From a virus, in IMG/VR virus record IMGVR_UViG_3300042291_002084, positions 6,168 to 70,167 of that record: a stretch of DNA of 64,000 nt, one strand, 5' to 3'. This document shows positions 1 through 40,435 of this stretch, piece after piece; within the stretch, counting starts at the first letter, position 1; every line of letters begins with the position of its first letter. Below the pieces are notes generated by a model, which worked only from the letters and a program-made list of their open reading frames with translations, had not been told where the DNA came from and searched no databases. Both the position numbers and the translations under genes were made by a program.

Positions 1-27
1 ATCTCCGCATCTGTGACAATTTGACAT
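1..27 (-). CDS. N-terminus of small early protein running off the window (MSNCHRCGD...)
   Basis: ATG at 27 directly downstream of the first copy of the repeated promoter cassette. Confidence 0.6.
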
Positions 28-116
28 AGTGTTTTAGTTTTTAAGTTATAATATAAATTTAACCAATTAAAGGATACGATGTATGCGTTTCCTAAAATAT
101 TTTACAAGAGGTACTG

Positions 117-245
117 TCAGATTTCTAGACAGGAAGTTGAACAAATTCCAACGGAAATTATTGAATAGGTAACAATCGCACAAATAATTAGGATTAAACT
201 ATATCCTACTTTAATTAAGGTCTCTTCAAATTTTCTAGTTTTCAT
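117..245 (-). CDS. 42-aa small membrane protein (MKTRKFEETLIKVGYSLILIICAIVTYSIISVG...)
   Basis: Translated by hand; ATG follows repeat cassette; hydrophobic segment. Confidence 0.6.
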   Translation of the reverse strand: MKTRKFEETLIKVGYSLILIICAIVTYSIISVGICSTSCLEI

Positions 246-353
246 AGTATTTAAGTTTTTAAGTTATATAGTAAATATAACCAATCTTTAGATTAGTTTG
301 TAGAACCGCCAATAATAAAAGTCCAGAGACTCAGTAAATCTAGATAAATAAAA

Positions 354-371
354 AGCCCGATTTCTCGGGCT
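354..371 (-). terminator. Rho-independent terminator (GCCCGA-N-TCGGGC + U-tract on minus)
   Basis: Inverted repeat flanked by A-run; related copies at 667-682, 955-970, 2346-2361. Confidence 0.75.
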
Positions 372-378
372 CAATCAT

Positions 379-564
379 TTAATATCCGCGTTTAATAATT
401 TGTTTAGTCTCATTAACTAATTCTTTTGCCTCTTCCTTAACCTTCTCTAAATTAGAATCAGGATGGTTCTGACGAAAGAATGTTACTATCTTAGGAACGT
501 TTAACATTCCTGCATTGATTAATTCTGCGATCTCTGCTCTAATGTTTGTAGTTGTCATAATCAT
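379..564 (-). CDS. Small hypothetical early protein
   Basis: ORF between cassette promoter and terminator. Confidence 0.75.
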   Translation of the reverse strand: MIMTTTNIRAEIAELINAGMLNVPKIVTFFRQNHPDSNLEKVKEEAKELVNETKQIIKRGY

Positions 565-690
565 TTAGTTTTTAAGTTATATAGTAAATATAACCAATCT
601 TTAGATTAGTTTGTAGAATCGACAATAATAAAAGTCCAGAGACTCGATATAAATCTTCATGAAAAAACCCGATTTCTCGGGTCTGGTGAA

Positions 691-846
691 TTACATTTGG
701 ATGAGGTCGACCACTTCTTCGCCGGTCGCTCGCCCGTCTCTGATAATCCCATAGTTTGGGTCCATTCCAGAAAGAATAACATCTTCGATGAGTGCCTCTA
801 GCGTTGGGAACTCTTTAGTGTAGTAGTCGCAATTTAAAGAATACAT
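691..846 (-). CDS. 51-aa small protein (MYSLNCDYYTKEFPTLEALIEDVILSGMDPNYGIIRDG...)
   Basis: Translated by hand; bracketed by cassette promoter and terminator. Confidence 0.75.
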   Translation of the reverse strand: MYSLNCDYYTKEFPTLEALIEDVILSGMDPNYGIIRDGRATGEEVVDLIQM

Positions 847-977
847 AGTAGTTTAGTTTTTAAGTTATAATATAAATATAACCAATTACTCTTATTCGAT
901 AATGCGTTTATAATAATAAAAAGCTAGAGACCCTTGGCCAGTCTGCAAAGAAAAACCCGATCTCTCGGGCTTAATTA

Positions 978-1190
978 TTACTTGGATAGGATTAACATTC
1001 CACCACTTGCTTTGATTTTAAATCCAGCTTCTTTTAGGATTAGTGTGATCTCTCTCCTTACGTTCGATGCTGGAACAATTGATCTGGATACGCTTCTAAA
1101 ATGATATGAGTGACCTGGTGCAGAATCCGGTAAATCATTACCATCAATAAATCCTTTAGCGTTTAATAATTGGATTGCTTCTTTTAACAT
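978..1190 (-). CDS. Small hypothetical early protein
   Basis: ORF between cassette promoter and terminator. Confidence 0.75.
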   Translation of the reverse strand: MLKEAIQLLNAKGFIDGNDLPDSAPGHSYHFRSVSRSIVPASNVRREITLILKEAGFKIKASGGMLILSK

Positions 1191-1342
1191 AGTTATTTAG
1201 TTTTTAAGTTATAATATAAATATAACCAATTACTCTTATTCGATAATGCGTTTATAATAATAAAAAGCGGGAGACTCGCTAACTAGCGGACAAAAGAAAG
1301 GGTCAACCTTCGCCGACCCAATCCCTAACTTAAAACAATATC

Positions 1343-1564
1343 TTATCTTTCCAAGATTACCCAGTCTCCAAAGTGTCGATCAAATACTTGAAGAAGATTT
1401 TCATAATCACCTGACATCATCTCTTCAACGATTGGATCAGGATTATCTCCACTGTCTCGAATGAATACTCTCGCTAATCCAATTAAATGGAAGGCATTAC
1501 CCTCTGGTCCAGTTAAGTCAATAACTAGGGGTCCTTTCTCTTTTAATTCTTTTTTTCTAATCAT
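1343..1564 (-). CDS. Conserved small phage protein (IDLTGPEGNAF..I...MMSGDYE.LL motif)
   Basis: Motif familiar from phage early proteins; follows cassette promoter. Confidence 0.8.
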   Translation of the reverse strand: MIRKKELKEKGPLVIDLTGPEGNAFHLIGLARVFIRDSGDNPDPIVEEMMSGDYENLLQVFDRHFGDWVILER

Positions 1565-1696
1565 CTTATTTGTTGTTAGGTTATATAGTAAATATAACTA
1601 TTATACTCTAATGGGTAATGCGTCAACTAACAAAAAAGTCCAGAGACCACAAAGGCAAGTCATGATCAGACCTGCCTAGTAATTTTGGATTTGGGA

Positions 1697-2290
1697 TTAG
1701 TTTTTTCTTACCATACCAAGTTTGGAGATAATCGTGTTGATTACTGATCCAATTAGAGACCCTCCATTTACTGTAGCAACCTGGCCATTTACACCGGTTG
1801 GAGCTCCTTTTGCTGGTGCCTTTTCAATTGGAATAGCAGCCAACTTTGGGTCTGCGCTTAGGTGTTGAGTAAGAGCATCGATAACTCCTTGATCGATCAT
1901 AGCGTCCTTTGCAAAAGGCTTCGCGATAGTAATAATAGCATTCATTAAACCCGAATCAAGTTTATCGTAGAGGCTAAGAATCACCTGACCTTGAGACATC
2001 TTGTTATCTACTGCCATACGATCAATCATACCCATCGTACTTGCATACACTGGTTGCATGATTGCATCAACAGCTGCCTTGTTCTCTGGAGATCCTTTAG
2101 TATATTTCGGATCATCATTATCCCCAACCTGAGCGTTTAGGATTTTCGCTTTTTCACTGCCCGCAGTATTAGCACTAATCGAATCGATCAGACCTTTAAA
2201 GTCGTCTCTATATCGAGTTACTAATTTCAAGAATCCAATACTTTTAGATTCAAATAACTGATGAGCATCTCTAGTTAATAGGTGTTTCAT
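1697..2290 (-). CDS. Hypothetical protein with capsid-targeting-like N-terminus (MKHLL...QLFES)
   Basis: Minus-strand GATAAATAA box at ~2307-2315; N-terminal tag motif. Confidence 0.8.
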   Translation of the reverse strand: MKHLLTRDAHQLFESKSIGFLKLVTRYRDDFKGLIDSISANTAGSEKAKILNAQVGDNDDPKYTKGSPENKAAVDAIMQPVYASTMGMIDRMAVDNKMSQGQVILSLYDKLDSGLMNAIITIAKPFAKDAMIDQGVIDALTQHLSADPKLAAIPIEKAPAKGAPTGVNGQVATVNGGSLIGSVINTIISKLGMVRKN

Positions 2291-2368
2291 AGTAATAGTT
2301 TTCTTATTATTTATCTAGAGACCGGCTAGGATAAGACAAAAAGAAACCGGATTACTCCGGTCTATCAC

Positions 2369-2716
2369 TTAATAGAAAAGACTAAGTAGTCCAGCCACTT
2401 CTTCCTCACTTGCTCTTCTAAAAGAGTCCCGATCCGGAGTCAGGCTAGGATGAGCACTAACCGCTTGGTGATAAGCTTCTTCTAGACTAGTCGCCCATTC
2501 CTGATTCCAACCACCCTCTTCAAAATTATAGGTCCACTCTACCTTGGTAACGGGTCCCGATCCTAGGTGACTCAGCTGACGAGCAACAAAATACTCTAGA
2601 CTTTCAGCAGCTTTCCTGATTCCTGCCCTGTCTCCAGCTTGGGTAGCCTCAACCAACTTACCACTCCAGTATTCTATCTTCTTAGCATACCCGTTTTCAT
2701 AATTAAATTTTTTCAT
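2369..2716 (-). CDS. Hypothetical early protein
   Basis: ORF behind cassette promoter, ends at terminator. Confidence 0.8.
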   Translation of the reverse strand: MKKFNYENGYAKKIEYWSGKLVEATQAGDRAGIRKAAESLEYFVARQLSHLGSGPVTKVEWTYNFEEGGWNQEWATSLEEAYHQAVSAHPSLTPDRDSFRRASEEEVAGLLSLFY

Positions 2717-2819
2717 AGTCTTTAAGTCTTTAAGTTATACTATAAATATAACCATAATACTCTAATGGATAATGCGTTTACTAAGATAAATTTAATAAAT
2801 GTCTAGAGACACTTTTGGA

Positions 2820-3023
2820 TTAACCAATAGTGTAGGGAAGTTGCGCGCCACTTTGGTCAAGTACACTAGCCGCTTTTACTAGAGTCGAGATTCGGTTATA
2901 CATACCCGTTGCATACTTCTTCATGCCCTCTACAACTTCTGCACTTGGATCTTTTATATCCTTCAACATGTCTAATACCATGCCATTAATAAATTGCTCT
3001 TTTACTTCATCTGTTATTGCCAT
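2820..3023 (-). CDS. Small hypothetical protein
   Basis: ORF with purine-rich leader. Confidence 0.6.
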   Translation of the reverse strand: MAITDEVKEQFINGMVLDMLKDIKDPSAEVVEGMKKYATGMYNRISTLVKAASVLDQSGAQLPYTIG

Positions 3024-3029
3024 CTTTCT

Positions 3030-3630
3030 TCTTTTTTCTCTCTTCTACTCTCTCCTAACCTAGAGTTTTCAAGAGACGGTATAGGACAGACAAAAAACGG
3101 GTCCAACTGGTCGAACTTCCCAAACAGAGACGCTACAGGATTAAAGATGTCTAGCTTAGACGTCTGGCCGAACGCCTGAGACCGGTTAACTAGATAGCTA
3201 GCTAGCCAGACTAGTCGAATACTGGCTCCAGGTACCGGCCAGGCTAGGTCAGCCCGACCAGCCGAGGAGATATCTGCCCCAGGAGACAAAAATCGGCCCC
3301 TGGCTGCCCCCAGGAGCGCCTGGCCGAGCGCCTGCTAGATAGGCTAGATAGGGCTAGACAGACAGGCTAGCAAAATAATGATGAAAAAGATGATTTCAAA
3401 TTAAATTTTGTAACTATAGGCCACTCCTGCCCCGAAAAAAGTCCTCCTCCCCGAGCCCCGAGACTCCCCCATGGCCATGAGTCCTTCTCCAGGTAAATTA
3501 CTCCCCGTGTACCCGCCCGTGTATACCTTTATATAAGACTCGTGGTGACACTCAACCCCTCTTCCCCTAGTAAAATGTCCCCTCTTCTCTAGACAAAAAA
3601 TCCCCCAGGAAAATTATATATTTTTTTCCT
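3030..3630. other. GC-rich, motif-dense non-coding region at gene-strand divergence (candidate genome terminus/packaging or origin region)
   Basis: Much higher GC than flanks; many CTAG, CCWGG and GAGAC motifs; C-runs; genes diverge on either side. Confidence 0.6.
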
Positions 3631-3637
3631 TTCTTAA

Positions 3638-3647
3638 GTATAAATAA
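3638..3647 (+). promoter_or_regulatory. T4-type late promoter box TATAAATA (variants GATAAATAA recur at ~6101, 8177, 8493, 10379, 24260, 26095, 27912 and on minus at ~2310, 31483, 48290, 53506, 57878)
   Basis: Repeated 15-30 nt upstream of start codons of virion-like genes; matches T4 gp55 consensus TATAAATA. Confidence 0.7.
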
Positions 3648-3662
3648 TAAAAAATTTAGATT

Positions 3663-4058
3663 ATGAAAAATAATGTAAAAAACTTTAGTCAATTCGTGAA
3701 TGAAAGCGGACTGGGATATGGCTGGGCAAATCGTAAAGACCTACGTAAAGAACTAGTTGGAGGTAAAGGTCAAAAAAGAGAATATGATGAGCTTTCAGAA
3801 CCAGATAGAATGGAGCTAGAAGGTCTATTTGCTAGTATTAACTTACGTGGAGAAGAAAGAGCAAAGTTAATACTTGCTAACTTTACTAATAAACTTTCAA
3901 AATTTAACACACTTGAAGAAATTAAGGCTGCACTTGAAATTGCTCGTGAAGAGTTAGATACTAAGTTCGCGCCTGGAGATAATGAAGAGTCAAACTGGAG
4001 TGGTCGTGACTCTTCAGCAGGTGAAGAAGGATATTATGACCAAGAAGAAGAATATTAA
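3663..4058 (+). CDS. Putative internal virion protein, tag MKNNVKNFSQFVNES
   Basis: Late box + N-terminal tag; acidic C-terminus. Confidence 0.8.
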   Translation: MKNNVKNFSQFVNESGLGYGWANRKDLRKELVGGKGQKREYDELSEPDRMELEGLFASINLRGEERAKLILANFTNKLSKFNTLEEIKAALEIAREELDTKFAPGDNEESNWSGRDSSAGEEGYYDQEEEY

Positions 4059-4078
4059 ATAAATAAAAAATTTAGATT

Positions 4079-4459
4079 ATGAAAAACAGGGTAAAGAGAT
4101 TTGGTCAATTCATCAATGAAAACATGCATGATGAAGATATGGAATTTACACCTAGACAACAGGAATATCTGGACTCATATGCAAACGATCGCCATAGCGA
4201 ATATAATGAGTTAAAAGGAGAACTTGGAAGAGAACAAGGAGCTAGACCAAAAGCAGCTATTATCTGGAACCCTGAGACAAAGGATATAGAGATAATTTTT
4301 ATGTCTGATCCTACTCGCGATCAACACGGTTTCGAAGACGAAAAAGAAGCAAACCCTGAGGTTGAGATCTACTTTGTAGAATTCGATGAGACTGCGTCAA
4401 TCAGAACAGTCGGTGGAGAGCTTGATCTAGAAGACGTTAAAGTATTAGGAAGGCTGTAA
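4079..4459 (+). CDS. Putative internal virion protein, tag MKNRVKRFGQFINEN
   Basis: Same leader/tag DNA as 3663 and 4998. Confidence 0.8.
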   Translation: MKNRVKRFGQFINENMHDEDMEFTPRQQEYLDSYANDRHSEYNELKGELGREQGARPKAAIIWNPETKDIEIIFMSDPTRDQHGFEDEKEANPEVEIYFVEFDETASIRTVGGELDLEDVKVLGRL

Positions 4460-4474
4460 AAAAATATTCAAGTA

Positions 4475-4963
4475 ATGATACTAGGATTTAATGATTTTAT
4501 AAATGAGGAAACTCAAGAAAATAGAAATTATCGCTGGGCTGGGATAAAAAAAGATAGAGCAGATCAATTTATGCGGCAGGCAATGAGCAACAATCGTGAT
4601 TCTAGATATTTAGCAGCTAAAAGTAAATATTGTAATGAGGAAGGTTTACGTATATTAATGAATGATCGCGACCCAAGTATTCGAAGAAGAGTAGCATTGA
4701 ATCCATATACCCCAGCGAGTATTTTAAAAGATATGTTGCACGATGAAAAACTTCACCTATTAATCGCATCTAATCCTAATGCTTCACCGGAAATTCTTCG
4801 TGAACTATCAAGCTCAACTGATGATCAAGTTATATCTAAAATTGCTGGAAATAGAAATGCGCCAATTGACCTACTACTTAAATTGGAAAACTATCCAGAT
4901 GGGGTAACTAGAGGAAATGCTAAACGTAACAAGACGCATATTGCCTGGAGAGCTGCTCAATGA
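4475..4963 (+). CDS. HEAT/leucine-rich-variant (LRV) repeat protein with tag MILGFNDFINEE
   Basis: Repeats VALNPYTP, IASNPNASPEIL, IAGNRNAP. Confidence 0.8.
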   Translation: MILGFNDFINEETQENRNYRWAGIKKDRADQFMRQAMSNNRDSRYLAAKSKYCNEEGLRILMNDRDPSIRRRVALNPYTPASILKDMLHDEKLHLLIASNPNASPEILRELSSSTDDQVISKIAGNRNAPIDLLLKLENYPDGVTRGNAKRNKTHIAWRAAQ

Positions 4964-4997
4964 TCTATAATAAATAAATAAATAAAAAATTTAAGTT

Positions 4998-5357
4998 ATG
5001 AAAAATAATGTAAAACGATTCGGTCAATTCATCAATGAAGGATATCGAGAAGACGGGAGTCATAGTGGCTACCAAGAAATGAAAGGTCAGCGTGGAGAAC
5101 CAACTAAAGGAATAGCAGTTTGGGAATTTGGTGAGGGCTTTGGAGCAGAATGGTCAACAGTTTCGTATGCTGGAAAAGAAATGGACGTTCCATTCGACGG
5201 TGACGAAGATTATGCTGACGACGGTAACTTTACACAAGAAGGATTTAGTAAAATCTTTAAATGTGCTGAAGAACTTGGCGCTGATCCAGAGATGGTGTAT
5301 TCAGCGGAAGATGGTAAACTTATATATTCAGACCAGGATGTAAGTCAAGGTATATAA
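4998..5357 (+). CDS. Putative internal virion protein, tag MKNNVKRFGQFINEG
   Basis: Late box + tag; followed by terminator. Confidence 0.8.
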   Translation: MKNNVKRFGQFINEGYREDGSHSGYQEMKGQRGEPTKGIAVWEFGEGFGAEWSTVSYAGKEMDVPFDGDEDYADDGNFTQEGFSKIFKCAEELGADPEMVYSAEDGKLIYSDQDVSQGI

Positions 5358-5375
5358 TTAAAACCCAAATTTATT

Positions 5376-5404
5376 AAGGGACTCTAATCGGGGTCCCTTT
5401 TTTA
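5376..5404 (+). terminator. Rho-independent terminator
   Basis: AAGGGACTC-taatc-GGGGTCCCTT + T-run. Confidence 0.8.
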
Positions 5405-5445
5405 TTTTCAAGACTTTAAGTATAAATAATAAAAAGTATCCAACT

Positions 5446-6015
5446 ATGAAATACCTTACTCGCTATCCTAAACCTCTATTGGAAAATGATGATGAAGATG
5501 ATAGTGATCTTCTACTTGATTTTGAAGCGTTAGGTCTCCTAAAGCCAGAACAGATGGCAGAATCCCGACGCGCCAAATTTATCCAGAGTCTAGTAGATCT
5601 ATTTAGTAGAGTAGGTATTGAGTGGAGAGATACTGCCTCAAGTCAATCCCGAAGTCGTGGTACCCAAGTTCCTCGACTAACTGAAGAGGAAGCCTATCAA
5701 TTGGTTATGAGTGCCGCACCTGATATTATCCAGAGTTTAAGCCGTAATCGAGCTACGAAATTAACTCGTATCCATCAGGAGATCTCTTCATTAGGGGATT
5801 GGACTCGACCTGATAATCCCTTAACCTATTGGATTCAACCAGCTGGGGTACGAACACAATATTATGGCAGATTCTCCCCAACTACCCCTAAGCCAACAGT
5901 CTCAAGTTTTATTAAATTTAATGGTGAACTTACCCCAAAGGAGATGATTGCACTCTTTGTAAATCAAGTGGCTATTGACTTGTCACCTCGACTAATCCAC
6001 CGATCCCAAAGGTAA
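5446..6015 (+). CDS. Hypothetical protein, tag-like N-terminus (MKYLTRYPKPLLEN)
   Basis: TATAAATA box at ~5421. Confidence 0.75.
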   Translation: MKYLTRYPKPLLENDDEDDSDLLLDFEALGLLKPEQMAESRRAKFIQSLVDLFSRVGIEWRDTASSQSRSRGTQVPRLTEEEAYQLVMSAAPDIIQSLSRNRATKLTRIHQEISSLGDWTRPDNPLTYWIQPAGVRTQYYGRFSPTTPKPTVSSFIKFNGELTPKEMIALFVNQVAIDLSPRLIHRSQR

Positions 6016-6130
6016 GGGTGACGGCCTCGCCCCCTTATAATATAGCGACTCTTCTCTGGAATCTTATCCAAACAATTTGAGGAGTCCCTCTTTAGCCAAG
6101 GATAAATAACTAAAATAAATTAGCTATTTT

Positions 6131-7294
6131 ATGTTGCATATCCAGGATTATTGGCACTTTATTAGTGAACAGGAAAAGTTTAGTCTTGACCCTAAACAGC
6201 TACCCCAAAAGTCAGATCGACTAGGTAAAGGTGGAAGTTTCGAGACAAGTCTCTATGGTAACAAGACTAAAGAGGAATATTTCAAAATACTTAAAGCCAA
6301 AGACCCCAAAACAATTAAGAGGATACGTTTGATCTTTCCTGGTAATAACTGGGAAGTGATTGCCCTAAAATTGGTTAAAACACTAGGCGTAGTTACTGGA
6401 GTATTTACCAATATTGAGACTGCTAATAGATTTATTAATGGATTAGTAAGCAAAGGCGTAACTGCAGACGAATTAGTAATTGGTTCACATGGCCAATATG
6501 GACAATTGTTGTCACCTAAACAGGGAGACTCATACTATTTTGACAATAGCTTTCTTAAATCATTTAAACCACTGGTTCACAAAGGCACAAAAGTATTTTT
6601 TACTGCCTGTCATGGAGCAGATTATCTAGATTCACTTAAGGATGCATCCGAAAAACTTGGAGTGCCGGTATATGGCTCAGCAGGTATCTATAACTATATA
6701 ACCAATGCAAGTGAAAAAGGTTTCTATCTTTGTTTTCCTGCAAAATTTGAAACGGGCAAGGAAAAGTCAATTTCCGCAGTCTACTTGGATAGTGAAACAA
6801 ACGGTTATCGAATTACCTGGAAAGAGGGCGACACTCAGGGAGTAACTGGAGAAAAGGTAAGAGTAACACTAGACCCTTCTATATTTGGAATAAAACTTGC
6901 ACCAATTACAATTGGAACTCAACCAATAAATATAGAAACCGCTCGAACTTCCGAAGTTCGCGCAGCTAATTCAGTAATGAGAGTAGATGTTGACCTATTG
7001 CAAGAACTAGAAAAATCAATGTATACTGACCCAGCAATATATGCTAAATTTAAAGCTAAGCTTAATAGGATGCCAGGTAACGATAAGTGGGACAAGCAGG
7101 TAGCACTTCAAAAATCCCTAATTGATAATTTCAACAAGGGCCTAGTTAAGATTGAAATTAGTAAAGCTTCTAATTGGGTAAATATCAAGACACTAAAGGA
7201 TGTAACCTTCTATAAAGAAATAGACAATCAATATCTTTTAAATCATGGGCTATGTAAAAGATACGATAATCCACCAGTGAGCTGGCTAGACTAA
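6131..7294 (+). CDS. Putative caspase-fold (DUF4347/CHAT-like) protein with tag MLHIQDYWHFISEQ
   Basis: LVIGSHG and VFFTACHG motifs spaced like a His-Cys dyad. Confidence 0.6.
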   Translation: MLHIQDYWHFISEQEKFSLDPKQLPQKSDRLGKGGSFETSLYGNKTKEEYFKILKAKDPKTIKRIRLIFPGNNWEVIALKLVKTLGVVTGVFTNIETANRFINGLVSKGVTADELVIGSHGQYGQLLSPKQGDSYYFDNSFLKSFKPLVHKGTKVFFTACHGADYLDSLKDASEKLGVPVYGSAGIYNYITNASEKGFYLCFPAKFETGKEKSISAVYLDSETNGYRITWKEGDTQGVTGEKVRVTLDPSIFGIKLAPITIGTQPINIETARTSEVRAANSVMRVDVDLLQELEKSMYTDPAIYAKFKAKLNRMPGNDKWDKQVALQKSLIDNFNKGLVKIEISKASNWVNIKTLKDVTFYKEIDNQYLLNHGLCKRYDNPPVSWLD

Positions 7295-7309
7295 AATAAT
7301 AAGTGGTAA

Positions 7310-7825
7310 ATGAAATATATTAAAGGATACAGACTATTTGAAAATAAGTTGCTTAGTGAGTGGACTCCTGAAGAGATTAGGCCTACTCAAGATATCTCAG
7401 TAGAATTATTAGCTCAACTTTCAAAAAGCGAAGATGACACTATTAAATATGCAGTCGCACAACATCCAAATACGCCAATGAGTGTATTAGAGGAGATGTT
7501 GGATACAACTGACTCTAATTTTATCTCTATTGAATACTATGTAGCTAAGAATCCAAACTTATCACCAGAACTTGCAGTTAGGATAAGTCAATCTACTAGT
7601 GATAGTGTACGTGCGCAAATTGCAAAAAATCCAAATCTTCCTCTAGAAAATTTTGAAGAACTTGCCCAAGATCCTGACTGGTATGTTAGGTCAGTAATTG
7701 CACTAAGCGATAGAGTGTCAGATGAGATACTTTCAAAATTAGTTAGTGATGGCAACGAGCACGTAGTAAAGAGCGCGCGTATAGTAATTGATCATCGATT
7801 CCAAAGATTACTTAGTGAATTTTAA
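7310..7825 (+). CDS. HEAT/LRV repeat protein with tag MKYIKGYRLFEN
   Basis: Repeats VAQHPNTP, VAKNPNLS, IAKNPNLP, DPDWYVR. Confidence 0.8.
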   Translation: MKYIKGYRLFENKLLSEWTPEEIRPTQDISVELLAQLSKSEDDTIKYAVAQHPNTPMSVLEEMLDTTDSNFISIEYYVAKNPNLSPELAVRISQSTSDSVRAQIAKNPNLPLENFEELAQDPDWYVRSVIALSDRVSDEILSKLVSDGNEHVVKSARIVIDHRFQRLLSEF

Positions 7826-7839
7826 AATTAGATTAGTCA

Positions 7840-8184
7840 ATGAGTGTAGATGTAGAGATATTATGGGTGCCATGTGGAGCACAGGACTTGGAATCGTGGA
7901 TTGCACTAGTAGATCACGAGGTAGTTGGCCATATCTATTTACTTCATGAAAGAGACGATCGTCTTAAATTCCTAGACGCCTGGGTGCATCCAGAATGGAG
8001 ACGTAAAGGAATATTTAGAAAACTTTGGGAAGCCCGCTGGGAAAGCGTTCAAGCTCGATATTCAGGAAAGGTTGCCTATGCTTGGTGTAAGCCAGGTTCC
8101 TTACCTCTACTCCTAGAAAAAGGATTTGAAACTGGCGAAATATGTACATACGTAGAGTTAACTGTTCCTAGTAGAGATAAATAA
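7840..8184 (+). CDS. GNAT family N-acetyltransferase
   Basis: Motif A WVHPEWRRKGI and C-terminal LEKGF. Confidence 0.8.
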   Translation: MSVDVEILWVPCGAQDLESWIALVDHEVVGHIYLLHERDDRLKFLDAWVHPEWRRKGIFRKLWEARWESVQARYSGKVAYAWCKPGSLPLLLEKGFETGEICTYVELTVPSRDK

Positions 8185-8202
8185 TAAAAATAAATAAAAA
8201 TT

Positions 8203-8436
8203 ATGCTTTACTTTAAACATAAAAACATTGATCTTTACTCTAAATTCAATGAAGAAACTGGAGAATTAACTCACATGTCAATACATAATACTGATTTTTC
8301 TACATCTCTACAGGTAATTGAAGAGTCACAAAGAGAACTTTTAAAATCTGAACTTGCATCAAATGCAGACCCTATTGAAGCTGAAGCATTTGAAACAGCG
8401 GTTACACCAATTCGATTAAAATTAGGAACTGTGTAA
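8203..8436 (+). CDS. Small hypothetical late protein
   Basis: ORF behind GATAAATAA. Confidence 0.65.
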   Translation: MLYFKHKNIDLYSKFNEETGELTHMSIHNTDFSTSLQVIEESQRELLKSELASNADPIEAEAFETAVTPIRLKLGTV

Positions 8437-8456
8437 ATATTATTTGATATTAAAAC

Positions 8457-8487
8457 AAATGTCTAAACAAAAGTTTAGACATTTTTT
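8457..8487 (+). terminator. Rho-independent terminator
   Basis: AAATGTCTAAAC-aaaa-GTTTAGACATTT + T-run. Confidence 0.75.
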
Positions 8488-8520
8488 GTTTAGATAAATA
8501 ACTAAAATAAAAACAATAAT

Positions 8521-10017
8521 ATGTCATTTATTAATTGGGGATCAGAGTCTCCCAAACAAAAAGAAAATCGTCGAAGATTTGAAGAAGAGCAAATGTTATA
8601 TGAGCAGGCTATTAGATTCTCTAGAACGACTGGTTCAATGGCAGGAGCAGCGGGTTCAGGATCAGTTGCAGATAAACCACCTATCGAATTATCTGCACAT
8701 CAGTGTACTATCGCTGGATTCAAGATTAGATGTTCTTCAGGAGAAGAACCAGTTAAGATTTCAGTTGATTGGGGAGATGATTTTAAAGAAGACATTATAA
8801 TATCTGATTCAATCGACTATACTTATTCTCATGAATATGGTGCAGGTTCTCCAGGAGAATATACTATTTTGATTAAGAGTAAACAACTTGATCGAATATC
8901 TAAATTTACAATCGACGGTGGGGTTACAAATTGGAATAAATTCCTTAGCGGAATTACTGGACTTCCTCTATTAATTAATCTAGTTGAACTTGAATTAACT
9001 TATACTTATTTAACTAATTTTGATACTGAGGCACCGTTAGCGGCTACTCTTAATAGTCTATATCTTAATGAAAATTATGATTTAAATGAATTTAATCCAA
9101 CTTATCCTTTGCCTGCAACTCTTAGTGAATTAATTATACTATCTGGCTCAATTGATTCATTTAATTTAACTCATCCGTTGCCTGCATCAGTACAATCGCT
9201 TTCTCTAAACGGAAATGGAATGACTTCGTTTAATTTAAACATAGAGCCAAATAACAATTTACTATTTTTAAGACTATATGGTAATCAACTCACTCAATTT
9301 ACAAGCGACTTAAGTGCAGCAACAAACTTATATAGGCTTGAACTAGATGGTAATCAAATGACATTGTTTAACCCAAGTGCACCTCTACCGAATAGTTTAA
9401 GAGTATTGTCATTATCCCAAAATCAGTTAGCTTCATTTAACCCAACTTATCAATTACCACCGCTAAATACTCTTAATTTAGGATCAAATAGGTTAACAAC
9501 ATTTGGATATTCTCATCCATGGCCACAGTATTTAACGTATTTATATTTACAAAATAATTTATTAACTTCGTTTAACCCTACTTACCGAGTTACAAGTGCT
9601 GAAGTTTTTCAACTTAGTGATAACATGTTAACATCATTTGACTATTCCCATGTATTGCCAAGCAATATACAGCACCTTTCATTATATGGAAATAGATTAA
9701 CGTCATTTTCATTAATTCAACCTTTTCCAGCAAACGGGCGAAGTATCTATGTATATGGAAATAATCAGCTGACTTCAGTAGATCTTTCAAATGTTACTAA
9801 TCCAACTGACCAGCTAAATTCAGTATGGTTTGCTTGGTGTAAACTTCCATCATCTGAAATAAATGAGATACTTATCCATTGTAATACAATAATGACAACT
9901 AGTAAAAGTCGCCAAATTCGATTAGATGGACAATCCCCTGCTGCTCCACCGAGTGGTGCTGGACTTAGCGCTAAGACTTCTTTACAAGCAAAAGGGGTTT
10001 ACGTATATACAGATTAA
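8521..10017 (+). CDS. Leucine-rich-repeat protein with PKD-like domain (probable virion surface/adhesin protein)
   Basis: VDWGD..HEY..PGEYTI PKD motif; ~12 repeats LxxLxLxxNxLTxF; N-terminal module shared with 10407. Confidence 0.85.
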   Translation: MSFINWGSESPKQKENRRRFEEEQMLYEQAIRFSRTTGSMAGAAGSGSVADKPPIELSAHQCTIAGFKIRCSSGEEPVKISVDWGDDFKEDIIISDSIDYTYSHEYGAGSPGEYTILIKSKQLDRISKFTIDGGVTNWNKFLSGITGLPLLINLVELELTYTYLTNFDTEAPLAATLNSLYLNENYDLNEFNPTYPLPATLSELIILSGSIDSFNLTHPLPASVQSLSLNGNGMTSFNLNIEPNNNLLFLRLYGNQLTQFTSDLSAATNLYRLELDGNQMTLFNPSAPLPNSLRVLSLSQNQLASFNPTYQLPPLNTLNLGSNRLTTFGYSHPWPQYLTYLYLQNNLLTSFNPTYRVTSAEVFQLSDNMLTSFDYSHVLPSNIQHLSLYGNRLTSFSLIQPFPANGRSIYVYGNNQLTSVDLSNVTNPTDQLNSVWFAWCKLPSSEINEILIHCNTIMTTSKSRQIRLDGQSPAAPPSGAGLSAKTSLQAKGVYVYTD

Positions 10018-24757: not shown

Positions 24758-25642
24758 CTAAATCTCGTGATTTAGGATTCTATCAGAAGTCAAACTAGCT
24801 TTAGCTAATTTAGATTTCATTATTTTTAATGCTTTAGAATATACTAATCTTGCCCATTCTGACGTTTTGCCATAACTTTGAGAAATAGTTGAAAAAGTTT
24901 CAGGTATACCATATGTTATTCCAATACGTCGACATACTATATCTTTCTGTACTGCCGTTAGTCTGCTTAGTGCAATCATTGCAGTTGTTTGGATATCAGT
25001 ATCATCAACTATTTCGCTAGCCGTTGATCCACTCGCGATCCAACTCATTGGTGCAAAAGTTTCTTCTGGATCATTTGATTCTAGCGGAACGCTTCTATGA
25101 TCTGAATTGACTACTCTTTTAATATTCGTTAAAGTCATATCATATCCTAATTTAATCAACTCTTCATGAATCTCTTCAAATGTTCCAGGTCGACCTTCAT
25201 CTTGTTGAATCCTTTCATCAACTCGTTTTATTTTGGCAAGGTCAGTTATTATATTTTGAGGAAGTCGTACTGGTCTTGAATCAGTATTAAGATATAACAT
25301 TATTTCTTTTCTAATATGCCATACTGCAAATGAGATAAATTTAAATCCTCGAGTAGGATCAAATAGTCTAGCTGCATCACAAAGTCCAATATTTCCTTGA
25401 CTAATTAACTCTTCCATTGAAATGTAAGCATTTGAATATTGTTTAGCAACAGATATTACAAATCTTAAGTTTGCAGAAATAAGTTGCTGAATTGCCTCCT
25501 CATCTCCTTTTTGAGCTCTGATGCCTATCTCAAATTCCTCATCTGCACTTAATAAAGGAACACTATCTACTTCACTAAAGTAACGATTGATGTTACCTGT
25601 TCTAGTAGTTATCTTTTCCTTTGCAATTTTTAGCTGTCTCAC
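24758..25642 (-). CDS. Sigma-70 family RNA polymerase sigma factor (RpoD/RpoS-like)
   Basis: Region 1.2 PLLSADEE; region 2 ANLRFVISVAKQY…ELISQGNIGL…FDPTRGFKFISFAVWHIR; region 4 HTH. Confidence 0.93.
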   Translation of the reverse strand: MRQLKIAKEKITTRTGNINRYFSEVDSVPLLSADEEFEIGIRAQKGDEEAIQQLISANLRFVISVAKQYSNAYISMEELISQGNIGLCDAARLFDPTRGFKFISFAVWHIRKEIMLYLNTDSRPVRLPQNIITDLAKIKRVDERIQQDEGRPGTFEEIHEELIKLGYDMTLTNIKRVVNSDHRSVPLESNDPEETFAPMSWIASGSTASEIVDDTDIQTTAMIALSRLTAVQKDIVCRRIGITYGIPETFSTISQSYGKTSEWARLVYSKALKIMKSKLAKASLTSDRILNHEI

Positions 25643-38551: not shown

Positions 38552-39502
38552 TTAATTTGATATTTGTGCTTTAATTATTGGGTGTGATTGATAATCTAAT
38601 ATTTTAAACATATCAATCTCTAATTTATCTAATTCATAATCTAACATATCAGGATGAATGTCTAATTTAGATAACGTAAAAGGTTCTCTTGATCTTTTTG
38701 GTATGTTTCTGGTGACTAATTTAGATTCTAACCATTCGTCATCTTTTACTTCCATACCTGGTGTAAATTCATTCTCGTATAGTTTTTTTCTTTCTTCTTT
38801 AGTAAGTTCTCTGCCAATCTGTTCCGTTGCTTGCTCAACGTGGTTTGAATATAAATGAACATCACCTAAATTACCAATCAATTCATCTGGAACCATATTA
38901 ACAACTTTAGCAATGATTTCCAATAACAATCCGTAAGATGCAATATTGAATGGTAAACCTAAGAATGTATCTACTGAACGTTGATTCCACATAAGCGAGA
39001 TTGCTCTGGTTGGAATATTTAATTCATTCATCCTACTAGCTAATGCTAATTCAAAATCTAAACCAATTGATTCGTATTGTTCTTTATTAGATAGAGCTTT
39101 ATTATACTCATCATCACTTTTGTTAACAAAAAATAATCGTTCTTTAACACTCAATTCTCTTGTATACATTTGAAACCCATAATGACACGGTGGAAGAACC
39201 ATTGAATCCAATTCTCCAACATTCCAAGCATTTACCATCAAACGTCTTGAATCTGGATTTGTTTTAAGGTCTTGAATTAGTTTTTCTATTTGGTCACATT
39301 TTGGAATATCTTTAAAATGTGTTACAGCACCATGATGCCAACCAGATGGAACTTGTTGAACACCACACCATGCTCTCCATTGCTTACCATATACTGGACC
39401 GAGTTCTCCGAATTTATCACTAAACGCTTTGTCATTTTTTATTTTTTCTATAAATTGTTCTTTAGAAAAAGGTGTGCCGTCTTCATTGATGTATTCTTTC
39501 AT
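38552..39502 (-). CDS. thyA: Thymidylate synthase, C-terminal polypeptide
   Basis: [20 protein letters not shown] (catalytic Cys), [26 protein letters not shown]. Confidence 0.93.
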
Positions 39503-40128
39503 TCTTCTAATTTTTTAAGTTTTCGTATTTCCCAAGCTTTCTTTAAAGACTCGGATGCTTTTCGATTATGTTCTTCACTATTGATTTTACCCTTTCTACC
39601 AGAAACTTTTCCTTTTCGATCTTCGCTCATTTTCTTTATAGTTTCTTCTGAATGTTTAAATCCAGTAAGAGTATTTTTGATTTTTTCTCTGGTTTCAAGA
39701 GAATGATTTTTCGCATAGAAACCATTTTTTTCACCAATACGTTCTTTGGCTTTTTTGGACATTTTATTCTTTGCATCTTCCGAATGTTTCTTATTATAGT
39801 TAGGGTTATTTACACCTTTAACTGATTCAGAATATTCCAATCTTATCATTTCATATAATTTAGAATTTGGAATATATCTCTGTTGGTTTTTATCTTTTAC
39901 ATTTAACATCATCCAAAGAGCTAACCTCAATCCTTTATGATTAGGGTATATTCTACATAAAAGTAAATGAGCTATAAAATGTTCTCTTGCAGTTAAAACT
40001 ACTAGATTCTCGATATCTTCACTTCCATTTAAACATCGCGGTATAATATGATGCCTTTCTGTATATCCTTCAATTTTTCTTGTTTTTGCTCTTTCGATTA
40101 ATTGAAGATAAATCTTATTATAATCCAT
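39499..40128 (-). mobile_element. MobE-like HNH homing endonuclease with NUMOD3 repeats, inserted in thyA
   Basis: MDYNKIYLQLIERA…ERHHIIPRCLNGSEDIENLVVLTAREHFIAHLLL; KHSEETIKKMS-type repeats. Confidence 0.9.
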
Positions 40129-40435
40129 TATTTTCTTTCCATTTTTCATACTCTTTTAAGTATGCGTTATAAGCATCTCCATCCCAAATGTGACAATCAT
40201 TGTCTACAAGGAATTTAATGTTTGTATCACCACGTAAGAACCAGATTAATTCGGTTGCTATAAGTCGGAACGGCATTCGTTTTGTCGTGAGCAATGGAAA
40301 CCCATCTTTCATATTGTGACGGATCTGTCTACCATATACTGAAATCGTTCCTGTTCCTGTGCGGTCACCTTTCTGATGTCCATTATCAAGTATGTCTTGA
40401 AGAAGTACTTGATAGTCTTTGTCTAATTTATTCAT
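40118..40435 (-). CDS. thyA: Thymidylate synthase, N-terminal polypeptide
   Basis: DRTGTGT, GFPLLTTK, ELIWFLRGDTNI, IWD; stops after 105 aa. Confidence 0.93.
   Translation of the reverse strand: MNKLDKDYQVLLQDILDNGHQKGDRTGTGTISVYGRQIRHNMKDGFPLLTTKRMPFRLIATELIWFLRGDTNIKFLVDNDCHIWDGDAYNAYLKEYEKWKENNGL

Follow-up and report, generated by a model that had tools for sequence, protein, structure and literature searches.

What are the repeated palindromic elements that precede a run of small genes in an uncultured virus, and what would read or cut them? The window analyzed here, a stretch of 64,000 nucleotides from IMG/VR record IMGVR_UViG_3300042291_002084, carries on its minus strand a one-directional array of small ORFan genes, the head of which lies at positions 28-2810. 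A first-pass annotation of this DNA had offered two readings, either an early promoter with an operator and a fixed upstream activator site, or an array of gene cassettes rearranged by a recombinase. From the sequences of the window and of its relatives, we infer that the element is a promoter, and an early one. On balance we favor an array of early promoters that would be read by the host enzyme, each combined with a phased protein site and insulating terminators, and shuffled in the manner of the PeSL units of T4-type phages.

The inverted repeat GTTATA-N7-TATAAC was found exactly at six positions of the window (263, 576, 864, 1208, 1580, and 2734), against 0.01 expected, and none of 100 shuffled sequences reached six matches. 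A seventh copy, at 45, which had been counted with the others, is degenerate, one mismatch turning its right arm into TTTAAC. GAGAC starts 45 nt after the end of the palindrome in five copies (326, 639, 927, 1271, and 1643), and for the one at 2806 the distance is 54 nt. In copy 45 GAGAC is missing, the coding strand reading ACCTCTTG where the other copies have GTCTCTnG. This rigid spacing had been noted from the outset, and so had two pairs of near-identical copies: 263 and 576 are indeed identical at 103 of 114 positions and 864 and 1208 at 99 of 114, compared with 73-91 of 114 for the remaining pairs. The genes behind the elements are unrelated, as proposed, no two array genes of this contig falling into one family by BLASTP.

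All array genes are encoded on the minus strand, so that each element lies upstream of its gene, and the hairpins, initially taken to end the gene behind the same element, belong to the previous gene. Cassette 1 (28-116) contains the degenerate core (45-63; coding-strand left arm GTTAAA) and ACCTC in place of GTCTC (108-112), and is predicted to drive an ORF whose ATG lies at 27-25 and which runs past the window start. A 42-aa ORF of no known family (117-245) is preceded by cassette 2 (246-372), composed of a leader, the core (263-281), the GTCTC box (326-330), and the terminator hairpin of the upstream gene (353-372). Cassette 3 (565-683; core 576-594, box 639-643, terminator hairpin 662-683) precedes a 61-aa ORF of family 4, also present in relatives (379-564), and cassette 4 (847-972; core 864-882, box 927-931, terminator 953-972) precedes a 51-aa ORF of family 0, which occupies another array position in relatives (691-846). 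A 70-aa ORF without relatives among the arrays compared (978-1190) and a 73-aa ORF of family 14 (1343-1564) follow cassette 5 (1191-1319; core 1208-1226, box 1271-1275, terminator 1300-1319) and cassette 6 (1565-1680; core 1580-1598, box 1643-1647), respectively. Cassette 7 (2717-2819; core 2734-2752) serves a 115-aa ORF of family 44 (2369-2716), and its GTCTC box (2806-2810) lies one helical turn farther away than in cassettes 2-6. The first gene of the array, a 67-aa ORF (2820-3023), has no class-1 core upstream; beyond it, a GC-rich non-coding array head on the same strand (3060-3520) is conserved in three relatives and carries more GTCTC boxes (3073, 3127, 3178, 3283, and 3460).

The shared element stands before the genes of cassettes 1-7, as had been described, but not before the 197-aa ORF at 1697-2290. 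The region upstream of that gene (2291-2363) lacks the palindrome and instead has another motif, GATAAATAAT (2306-2315), abutting a GTCTC box (2318-2322; GAGAC at 2318), with a terminator at 2344-2363, and a different promoter type is predicted for it. Four of the hairpins (353-372, 953-972, 1300-1319, and 2344-2363) are minus-strand terminator-like GC hairpins with T-runs, and the one at 662-683 was found by eye in the sequence. In cassettes 2-5, and likewise at the 197-aa gene, the GTCTC box is preceded at a distance of 15-45 nt by a GC hairpin with a T-run; no terminator hairpin was found at cassettes 1 and 7. Terminator-like sites numbered 18, where 5.4 would be expected, and most of them are coding-strand sites just upstream of cassettes.

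In coding-strand orientation, the ~100-bp cassette consists of the terminator hairpin, the GTCTC box, a −33 region that varies among three types (ACGCATTACC, TCTACC, or ATTGTCAAG), the core nTTATATTTA-N2/3-TATAAC-TTAAAAAC, and the ATG, the leader being short and A-rich. Of 89 unique copies, 81 have TATAAC 15-17 nt before the ATG, cores occur upstream of genes only, and no Shine-Dalgarno sequence was seen in the upstream regions of array genes. This record has 14 core copies on one strand in one cluster and none in the remaining 61 kb; the related record G002 has 17, also on one strand in one cluster, and none in the remaining ~123 kb. Records G001, G003, G004, and G005 have 19, 21, 13, and 2 copies, likewise in a one-strand cluster, and a reversed core pattern used as a control gave no match in these four. 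The array is at least 9.3 kb long in this contig and runs on past its left end. The core was present in eight IMG/VR contigs and in no fewer than 173 stretches of freshwater and marine metagenomes, and three core strings were absent from the literature searched (open papers and preprints). A stretch of ~26 nt is near-invariant across phages whose genes are only ~70% identical, a conservation that is partly by construction, since the copies were gathered by patterns containing the core and some of the scans also required the leader TTAAAAAC. A near-invariant stretch of this length is longer than a sigma-A promoter requires and would suggest a dedicated factor, an observation that runs against the reading we prefer.

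The box has the consensus GTCTCynGAcTTTT and lies 39/40, 49/50, 59/60, or 69 nt upstream of the core, in 10-bp steps. GTCTC, which was never included in any search pattern, occurred 126 times in the interval 30-95 nt upstream among 169 unique copies, 116 of these occurrences being at offsets ending in 9 or 0; counted by sequence cluster (n = 130), 80 of 90 boxes were phased. Five-mers of the same composition showed no 10-bp comb. The density of GTCTC was 5.2 per kb in intergenic and 1.0 per kb in coding sequence, with control 5-mers at ~1 per kb. The type of box (GTCTC, GCTCy, or AGGGTAAA) is uniform within a contig and differs between lineages. Because these offsets keep the box always on the same helix face, its placement indicates a site for a putative protein on that face. 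The arrangement recalls Class I activator-dependent promoters, in which the upstream site is allowed only at one-helical-turn steps from the core promoter, as with CRP sites at −61.5, −71.5, and so on. It differs from the CRP case in having a 5-bp asymmetric core rather than a 22-bp palindrome, in the host phylum and polymerase, and in a binding protein that is so far putative.

The window belongs to a large freshwater phage with crAss-like head genes, which most likely infects Bacteroidota and, within them, probably Flavobacteriales. Four observations point to such a host: the large terminase of G002 aligns over 99% of its length with the Cellulophaga phage phi14:2 protein at 34% identity, the next matches being to Flavobacterium and Bacteroides phages; TAnnTTTG occurs elsewhere in G002; the Shine-Dalgarno sequence is missing; and one bacterial-genome match lies in a Flavobacteriales MAG. 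Pfam matches were obtained for 1 of 22 array proteins of this record and 4 of 62 of G001 and G002 together, one of the latter four being a sigma-70 protein with regions 2 and 4.

The 7-nt spacer of the palindrome holds within the window but not across the family: of 89 unique copies, 61 have a spacer of 6 nt and 28 one of 7 nt, and eight different spacer sequences occur. Seventeen of the 89 lack the outer G yet retain its partner C, without compensation. As a DNA hairpin, the palindrome has a ΔG of −1.3 to −3.1 kcal/mol (z −2.0 to +0.7); when it was compared with 200 shuffles, 11 to 152 of them folded equally well. Its symmetry ends at 6 bp per arm, the next position pairing in 30 of 89 copies (A/T 27, G/C 3). 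Given the variable spacer, the uncompensated loss of G, and the weak hairpin, the palindrome is best read as a putative Bacteroidota-type −7 box (TAnnTTTA) adjoining a conserved start-site/leader sequence.

The Flavobacterium −7 element is reported to span −12 to −5 (PMC6847099, PMC9723704), and the core agrees with it at 7 of 8 positions. A match at −12 to −5 places the predicted start inside TATAAC, with a leader of ~20 nt; the median 5′ UTR reported for F. psychrophilum is 24 nt. Host sigma-A promoters are described as having a nearly invariant G at −5 (PMC6847099), whereas 87 of the 89 copies end the −7 element in A and two end it in G, under a collecting pattern that permitted either base, and the core does not read TAnnTTTG. 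T-type copies have TTG 21 nt upstream (TTG-N21), and the phi14:2 middle promoters, in the sequences printed in the preprint, read TTG-N20-TAnnTTTG (bioRxiv 10.1101/2020.03.07.982082). The −33 TTG is absent in K- and Y-type copies, including all seven window copies, which are of the ACGCAT or TCTACA type, but the −33 element is reported to be weak in Flavobacterium anyway (PMC6847099). Outside the array of G002, canonical TAnnTTTG was present in 16 of the 49 upstream regions listed. The cassettes resemble the Bacteroidota sigma-A promoter (−33 TTTG/−7 TAnnTTTG) and the phi14:2 middle promoters in a TAnnTTT at the right distance from the gene, in the TTG 20-21 nt upstream (T-type), in an A/T-rich upstream part, and in a tripartite layout. 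They differ in the last base, in having ACGCATTACC or TCTACC at −33 in many copies, all window copies among them, in 14 more invariant bases downstream, and in the upstream GTCTC box.

According to the host-read promoter model, the left palindrome arm would belong to a −7 element of the Bacteroidota type (TAnnTTTG, which here reads TAtaTTTA), TATAAC as the right arm would cover the predicted start site (about −2 to +4), and the palindrome would be a by-product of two A/T-rich parts, the −7 box and the start region. RNA polymerase, most likely the host enzyme, would start at the core early in infection, and a protein on the phased GTCTC box may help or control it. The hairpins would insulate each transcription unit from its neighbors, and the repeated cassettes would provide homology at which ordinary recombination could swap, lose, and gain genes. 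The part of the initial proposal that consisted of an early promoter with a fixed upstream site is consistent with the ATG distance (81/89), the single-strand cluster, the −7-like core, and the box at 10-bp steps.

A tentative alternative, which we hold to be possible although rather doubtful, is that the promoter is read by a phage-specified enzyme or factor, either a crAss-type virion RNA polymerase or a phage sigma factor, with the 26-nt core as recognition sequence, possibly melted or in hairpin form as in N4. It would account for the long invariant stretch and for an invariant A where host promoters have a nearly invariant G, and it fits the crAss-like head genes and the sigma-family proteins encoded by these phages. 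In phi14:2, the virion RNA polymerase is reported to read the early genes, and host-type promoters to serve those of the middle and late periods (bioRxiv 10.1101/2020.03.07.982082). In G002, too, canonical TAnnTTTG stands before replication and structural genes, and this record stops within an open ORF of at least 1699 aa with no assigned function. On the other hand, matches to phi14:2 gp66 and gp65 were absent from this record and G002 (tblastn, blastp), the DxDxD motif was absent from the G002 ORFs of at least 250 aa, from its end ORF, and from the ORFs of at least 700 aa of G001, G004, G005, and this record, and the four large virion-module ORFs of G002 that were compared gave no PDB sequence match to 6VR4; since all the records searched are fragments, these absences are weak evidence. 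The sigma gene with regions 2 and 4 lies inside the array behind a class-1 core and thus cannot be needed for the first transcription of the array. The hairpin is also weak and not kept by compensatory change, and in these two respects, at the ΔG values given above, it does not resemble an N4-type hairpin promoter. In a wider form that we likewise put forward with reserve, the cassette could be the recognition unit of phage-specified early transcription in crAss-related phages of Bacteroidota, the core being read by a virion polymerase or sigma factor, the lineage-specific phased box by a co-evolving phage protein, and the same cassette also serving as a shuffling substrate. The phi14:2 preprint reports no common motif for the early transcripts (bioRxiv 10.1101/2020.03.07.982082); if a phage-delivered enzyme does read the core, this would be the first consensus early promoter for a large group and would fill that gap.

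It is unlikely that the palindrome is an operator at which a dimeric phage or host repressor spans the start site and shuts off all early units. Both 6-bp arms are kept in 68 of 89 copies, the site shares sequence with the predicted −7 box and start region, and lytic phages commonly shut off their early genes in a coordinated fashion. However, the change from a 6-nt (61 copies) to a 7-nt spacer (28 copies) rotates the half-sites by ~34 degrees, the outer G is missing in 17 of 89 copies while its C stays, other roles explain both arms, and the 62 array proteins include no recognizable helix-turn-helix repressor. On the spacer and the lost G, the operator for a dimeric protein, a part of the initial promoter proposal, was not upheld.

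Gene order differs among the arrays of relatives. Aligning these relatives, a check named beforehand, revealed varying gene content and mosaic junctions inside the cassettes, in agreement with the likeness to T4 PeSL units drawn at first. Thirty-six of 50 promoters are closer to a paralogue in the same genome than to the promoter of the orthologous gene, and G001 6631-6823 matches G002 8204-8394 through the cassette, after which the genes differ. Of 40 HSP ends between G001 and G002, 13 lie in both genomes inside the zone from −90 to +30 around a core, which makes up ~11.5% of the sequence, although junctions are not placed to the base because relatives are only 67-93% identical.

Differing order and junctions within cassettes would also be expected of an integron-like system in which a recombinase cuts the palindrome and moves single-gene cassettes, as the first-pass annotation had suggested, but we consider this very improbable. 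A tyrosine recombinase (PF00589) was found in none of six records, namely this one and five relatives (all fragments), by a search whose control was positive in all 14 genomes used for it. For both tyrosine and serine recombinases, two sites can recombine only if their crossover regions match, whereas the spacer here varies in length and has eight sequences; a tyrosine-recombinase core site was not supported by these findings. In all three records that reach far enough (G001, G003, and G004), an ORF of 230-261 aa with HTH_17 and Resolvase domains, of the serine recombinase type, lies on the other strand, 3-6.5 kb past the distal array end; it is not in this record or G002, whose arrays run off the contig. 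The conservation of this gene was counted in favor of a recombinase and against the host-promoter reading. A serine-recombinase site of the res/hix type, which needs ~12-bp inverted half-sites around a 2-bp crossover, does not fit the symmetry of 6 bp per arm; the short arms are also A/T-rich. Integron attC and tyrosine-recombinase core sites are similar in being imperfect inverted repeats between single-gene cassettes, but the element here lies 5′ of the gene at a fixed, promoter-like distance from the ATG rather than at cassette 3′ ends, its spacer varies, and no integrase was found. Contig joints of the "goes back" kind in reads gave no circles; their sides of 31-43 nt are explained by more promoter copies on contigs extending past this record. 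Homologous recombination between 100-bp repeats would be enough for the shuffling. Finally, a 5′-leader RNA hairpin controlling stability or translation of transcripts that start farther upstream, for example at the GTCTC box, is barely credible: the fixed ATG distance and a fold of −4.1 to −6.4 kcal/mol in five window copies would suit it, but the copies fold no better than shuffles (z −1.6 to −0.3) and have no compensatory changes, the 10-bp phasing of GTCTC relative to the core is a property of DNA rather than RNA, and Bacteroidota are reported to favor unstructured leaders (PMC6847099).

PeSL (promoter-early stem-loop) units of T4-type phages are described as a repeated strong early promoter and stem-loop terminator before ORFans (Arbiol et al. 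2010, PMC2839356; Comeau et al. 2014, PMC4122927). As reported there, they are composite, with an early-type promoter that has an A/T-rich upstream part, and they lie mostly before ORFans in a plastic region, forming exchange points between unrelated genes, features that the present cassettes parallel, with a promoter that is a predicted one. The cassettes differ in belonging to a phage lineage with crAss-like head genes and another host phylum, in having Bacteroidota-type promoter elements instead of sigma-70 −35/−10 elements, in lacking a Shine-Dalgarno sequence, in lying all in one unidirectional cluster, and in the 26-nt invariant core and helically phased GTCTC box, which do not figure in the PeSL descriptions of these sources. 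Mini-circles, formed when adjacent copies recombine, are a further PeSL feature, which the contig joints here did not show. Over the cores, no TTGACA/TATAAT pair was found at 16-18 nt, and because of this, the crAss-like head genes, and the missing Shine-Dalgarno sequence, the cassette is, judged from these features, an analogue of PeSL and not a member. Phages SPO1 and T5 offer another comparison, in the host-takeover early-gene modules of the former and the pre-early region of the latter, which are terminal clusters of many small genes without assigned function, each or nearly each with a strong early promoter and terminator of its own. Their promoters are plain host sigma promoters, for which we know of no reported phased upstream box or conserved start-site block.

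The phages concerned are uncultured and widespread in freshwater and marine environments, and the cassette offers a sequence handle for their early or host-takeover gene sets. It also delimits single transcription units and tracks gene turnover between strains. The GTCTC box, quantized in 10-bp steps, would provide a clean and testable case of face-of-helix control in Bacteroidota, a phylum in which little is known of promoter architecture apart from the −7 box.

The palindrome GTTATA-N7-TATAAC was found six times in the 64-kb window, with all copies lying at 263-2752, against an expectation of 0.01, and none of 100 shuffles reached six. A seventh copy, at 45, carries one mismatch. The repeat reported in the first-pass annotation is thus confirmed, as are its near-identical pairs, since copies 263 and 576 are identical at 103 of 114 positions and copies 864 and 1208 at 99 of 114, with every other pair at 73-91. 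The spacing described for GAGAC holds too: in five copies the box begins exactly 45 nt past the end of the palindrome, in the copy at 2734 it begins 54 nt past it, and the copy at 45 lacks it.

All plausible genes in window 1-3023 are on the minus strand. Read on this strand, the intergenic regions are composed of a GC hairpin with a T-run, GTCTC(T/C)nGAC TTTT, 35-45 nt of A/T-rich sequence, the core, (T)GGTTATATTTA-N2/3-TATAAC-TTAAAAAC, and the ATG; this order identifies the element as a 5' regulatory cassette, with the 'GAGAC box' (GTCTC on the coding strand) located upstream of it. The hairpin and T-run form the terminator of the preceding gene (18 terminator-like sites versus 5.4 expected). 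The gene at 1697-2290 is an exception: it lacks the palindrome, and its GTCTC box directly adjoins GATAAATAAT. A sigma-70 consensus scan placed no TTGACA/TATAAT pair on the cores, no Shine-Dalgarno sequence precedes the genes, ARAGORN returned 0 genes, and the 9.8-kb array gave a single, sub-threshold Rfam match (Ocean-V, 21.6 bits versus a gathering score of 75). We conclude that this is a real and strongly non-random regulatory array.

The window covers bases 6168-70167 of the 70,167-bp IMG/VR record, and the array runs to the first base of the record. The 14 copies in this record, on the minus strand only, are confined to genome positions 544-8918, the remaining 61 kb being free of them. 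In one sequencing run, a contig extends 4.8 kb beyond the end of the record at the array side. Scanning IMG/VR with the core gave 51 loci on 8 contigs. Whole-record scans of five related phage records gave 19 copies in G001 (41.5-59.5 kb), 17 in G002 (within the first 17 kb), 21 in G003 (22.7-39.7 kb), 13 in G004 (11.6-27.2 kb), and two in G005 (contig end); copies were confined to one strand in each scanned record, and the reversed-pattern control gave 0. At least 173 freshwater and marine metagenome stretches carry the core, and its single match in the bacterial-genome scan was on a contig of a Flavobacteriales MAG. No DNA match to the window-side array was found in cultured phages, in which a 96-nt cassette had chance-level matches only (E 0.07 to 3), and the core strings do not occur in the literature searched (open papers and preprints).

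A pattern that fixed only TTA(T/A)ATTT(A/G)-N2/3-TA(T/A)AA(C/T) recovered 89 unique copies from the 8 contigs together with this record. The GTCTC box was part of no search pattern, and its distance was measured upstream of TTATATTT. It lay at 49/50 nt in 49 of the 89 copies, at 59/60 nt in 16, at 39/40 nt in 6, at 69 nt in 2, and at 48/58 nt in 3, an exact box being absent from the 13 others. The same distribution was observed in metagenome contigs, which supplied a further 80 unique copies as an independent set (39/40 nt, 5; 47-50 nt, 27; 57-60 nt, 17; 75 nt, 1; none, 30). When the occurrences were pooled, the distance had 9 or 0 as its last digit in 116 of 126, and the box remained phased in 80/90 when counted by sequence cluster (130 clusters); 5-mers of the same composition showed no such comb. 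The inserts that account for the additional 10 or 20 nt are not alike in sequence; it is their length that is kept and no particular repeat. The density of GTCTC in the arrays is 5.2 per kb in intergenic regions versus 1.0 per kb in coding regions, with control 5-mers at about 1 per kb. An enrichment of GAGAC on the coding strand within genes was discarded as compositional, CAGAG being biased alike. We infer that the helical-turn steps reflect a protein bound to the DNA on the side that has to face the polymerase. The type of box is uniform within a contig: 16 multi-copy contigs have GTCTC and four have GCTC(T/C) or AGGGTAAA at similar distances. A lineage-specific box next to a universal core suggests a binding protein that evolves faster.

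Three G002 proteins, the large terminase, the portal, and the major head protein, belong to crAss-like families. For the terminase, the first match is that of Cellulophaga phage phi14:2 (34% identity over 99% of its length), ahead of those of Flavobacterium and Bacteroides phages. A 1661-aa protein has a weak match to the crAss muzzle domain, and a TROVE protein is also present. The canonical Bacteroidota -7 box, TAnnTTTG, was found in 16 of the 49 listed G002 upstream regions outside the array, and also in front of phi14:2 middle genes. Because of these crAss-like and phi14:2-like genes, the occurrence of TAnnTTTG in G002 and phi14:2, and the lack of Shine-Dalgarno sequences, the host is very likely a member of the Bacteroidota. 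The Flavobacterium -7 box, as described in two reports (PMC6847099, PMC9723704), spans -12 to -5, with T-12, A-11, T-8, T-7, T-6, and G-5 nearly invariant. The array core TATATTTA agrees at all of these bases except the last, which is A in 87 and G in 2 of the 89 copies. In this register, TATAAC would lie at about -2 to +4 and the predicted leader would measure about 20 nt; for the 5' UTRs of F. psychrophilum a median of 24 nt is given. The -33 region is of three types, among which ACGCAT is found at the array head in four of five long arrays and in most window copies, and TTGTCA, with TTG-N21, is distal in the array.

Alternatively, by analogy with phi14:2, the non-canonical core might belong to a phage enzyme and not to the host polymerase, a reading that is less likely but keeps some weight because every record is a fragment. 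In phi14:2, according to one report (bioRxiv 10.1101/2020.03.07.982082), the virion polymerase gp66 transcribes the early genes, which have no common motif, and the middle promoters are tripartite and of host type. However, gp66 and gp65 gave no match as tblastn/blastp queries, no DxDxD motif was detected in G002 ORFs of at least 250 aa or in ORFs of at least 700 aa of G001, G004, G005, and this record, and the four large G002 ORFs searched had no matches among PDB sequences. At E <=1e-10, no PHROG family was found for gp66 or gp65 of phi14:2. At the end of G002, an ORF of at least 1699 aa (L243:128-5224 (+), a stretch of that record) has no similarity to Pfam, PDB, or gp65/gp66; as this ORF runs off the end, the CheckV estimate of '100% complete' for G002 was rejected.

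An operator reading of the palindrome, also put forward in the first-pass annotation, is weak. Both full arms are kept in 68 of the 89 copies; in 17, another base stands in for the outer G, while its partner C is unchanged in all, and there is no consistent pairing at the next position outward. The arms are separated by 6 nt in 61 copies and by 7 nt in 28, with eight different spacer sequences. Single-stranded DNA folds of the six window copies reached -1.3 to -3.1 kcal/mol, values equaled by 11-152 of 200 shuffles, and RNA folds of the palindrome were no better than shuffles. What is conserved instead is the run TATATTTA, the block TATAAC-TTAAAAAC, and the distance to the ATG (15-17 nt in 81/89 copies), although the core, plus the leader in some scans, was built into the search patterns and the conservation of these parts is partly by construction. 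The palindrome is thus not the selected feature. A T4-late-like TATAAATA on its opposite strand was also rejected, as it is found only in TTTATAT-type spacers (three window copies), is missing from the TTTACT spacers that make up the majority, and is directed away from the genes. The suggestion of a tyrosine-recombinase core site is disfavored because the spacer is variable (6 or 7 nt), and no such gene was found in this record or its five relatives.

A serine recombinase with an N-terminal HTH_17 and a Resolvase domain, an order that we take to be IS607-like, is encoded in G001, G003, and G004 on the other strand relative to the array, beside an AAA_25 gene (L247:3840-4625, L258:10131-10823, and G003:C1:46205-46528, all (-), L247 and L258 being stretches of relatives). 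It lies 3-6.5 kb past the distal array end in all three records that extend so far; the sequences of G002 and of this record stop within the array. The palindrome has no symmetry beyond 6 bp, and no link between the resolvase and the cassettes was found. Logan contigs of four DNA runs, mapped on the sequence of this record (L005), are interrupted at the repeated cores. The sides of the joints listed are short (20-43 nt), and their depth is that of one 6.1-kb contig reaching past this record or of co-occurring relatives; the joints show neither circles nor strain rearrangements and were given no weight for or against either.

Gene content and order vary between relatives, with junctions in the cassettes. 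A common core order (BLASTP families 5-15-6, 16..7, 1, 17-18-19-20, and 8) is accompanied by single units, for example families 0, 4, and 14, which are placed differently, and by slots with unrelated genes. By ungapped identity, a crude measure, 36 of 50 promoters are closer to a paralogue in the same genome than to the promoter of the orthologous gene. Between G001 and G002, 13 of 40 HSP ends fall in the zone from -90 to +30 around a core in each genome (this zone takes up about 11.5% of the sequence), and G001 6631-6823 corresponds to G002 8204-8394, an intergenic and cassette segment with different genes behind it; the relatives are 67-93% identical, and junctions were not resolved to the base. 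The comparative data fit homology exchange within cassettes. T4-type PeSLs show the same behavior, with exchange at cassettes, in two reports (PMC2839356, PMC4122927). The proposed likeness to these early promoter/terminator cassettes holds for how the array works, but not for membership in the PeSL family, from which it differs in lineage, host-type elements, the lack of Shine-Dalgarno sequences, the invariant core, and the phased upstream box.

Other features were observed near the array. A GC-rich non-coding array head at window 3060-3520 (-) is conserved in G001, G002, and G003 (68% mean column identity, with long invariant blocks). Within it are CTAG-rich repeats, terminator-like hairpins, and several GTCTC boxes that are themselves conserved. 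The head may act as a structured RNA or as a DNA site; its consensus fold has a covariation term of about 0, an uninformative value from four sequences only. Early non-coding RNAs are abundant in phi14:2 (bioRxiv 10.1101/2020.03.07.982082). Four consecutive genes at window 3663-5357 (+) share N-termini MKNxVKxFxQFxNE and an upstream block AAAAAATTTAGATTATG, and look like a paralogous family diverging from the array head. A conserved intergenic motif, TTTACTCCGTAGT(A/G), with a TTACT/AGTAA hairpin and a CCGT loop, lies upstream of cassettes at L005 about 1290-1440, 3990-4010, and 5685-5700 (-) and in many relatives. ARAGORN did not call the tRNA-like stretch (T-arm GGTTCGAATCC) in which one copy lies, and the depth of this stretch is 5-10 times the local contig depth in 4/4 runs. 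Farther away, at window 38552-40149 (-), an ORF for an HNH+NUMOD3 homing endonuclease is directly followed by a thymidylate synthase ORF of 316 aa, with a profile match in two stretches (G002 ThyA, 407 aa), which may represent an endonuclease insertion or a split gene.

Further promoter-like motifs were also noticed. (G/A)ATAAATAA(C/T) occurs 15 times in the window versus 4.7 expected, each time on the same strand as the neighboring genes and about 20-25 nt ahead of ATGs (2306, 6101, 8176, 8493, 10379, 26095, 27911 (+/-), and eight more); this candidate target of a phage sigma resembles the T4 late TATAAATA. At 73-85 kb in G002 (L060/L061), small minus-strand genes have canonical TAATTTTG -7 boxes that are preceded by repeated TTGCAACAAAA boxes, a further promoter subclass, perhaps with its own activator.

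Two different phage genes of the sigma family were identified, one with r1.2+r2 only at window 24758-25642 (-), and the other with r2+r4 (L057:3073-3792 (-)) inside the G002 array, behind a class-1 core. Judged from gene content only, with Pfam matches in 1/22 and 4/62 of the array proteins, the array would be the early class, read by the polymerase present at infection, and would make a sigma factor for later gene classes.
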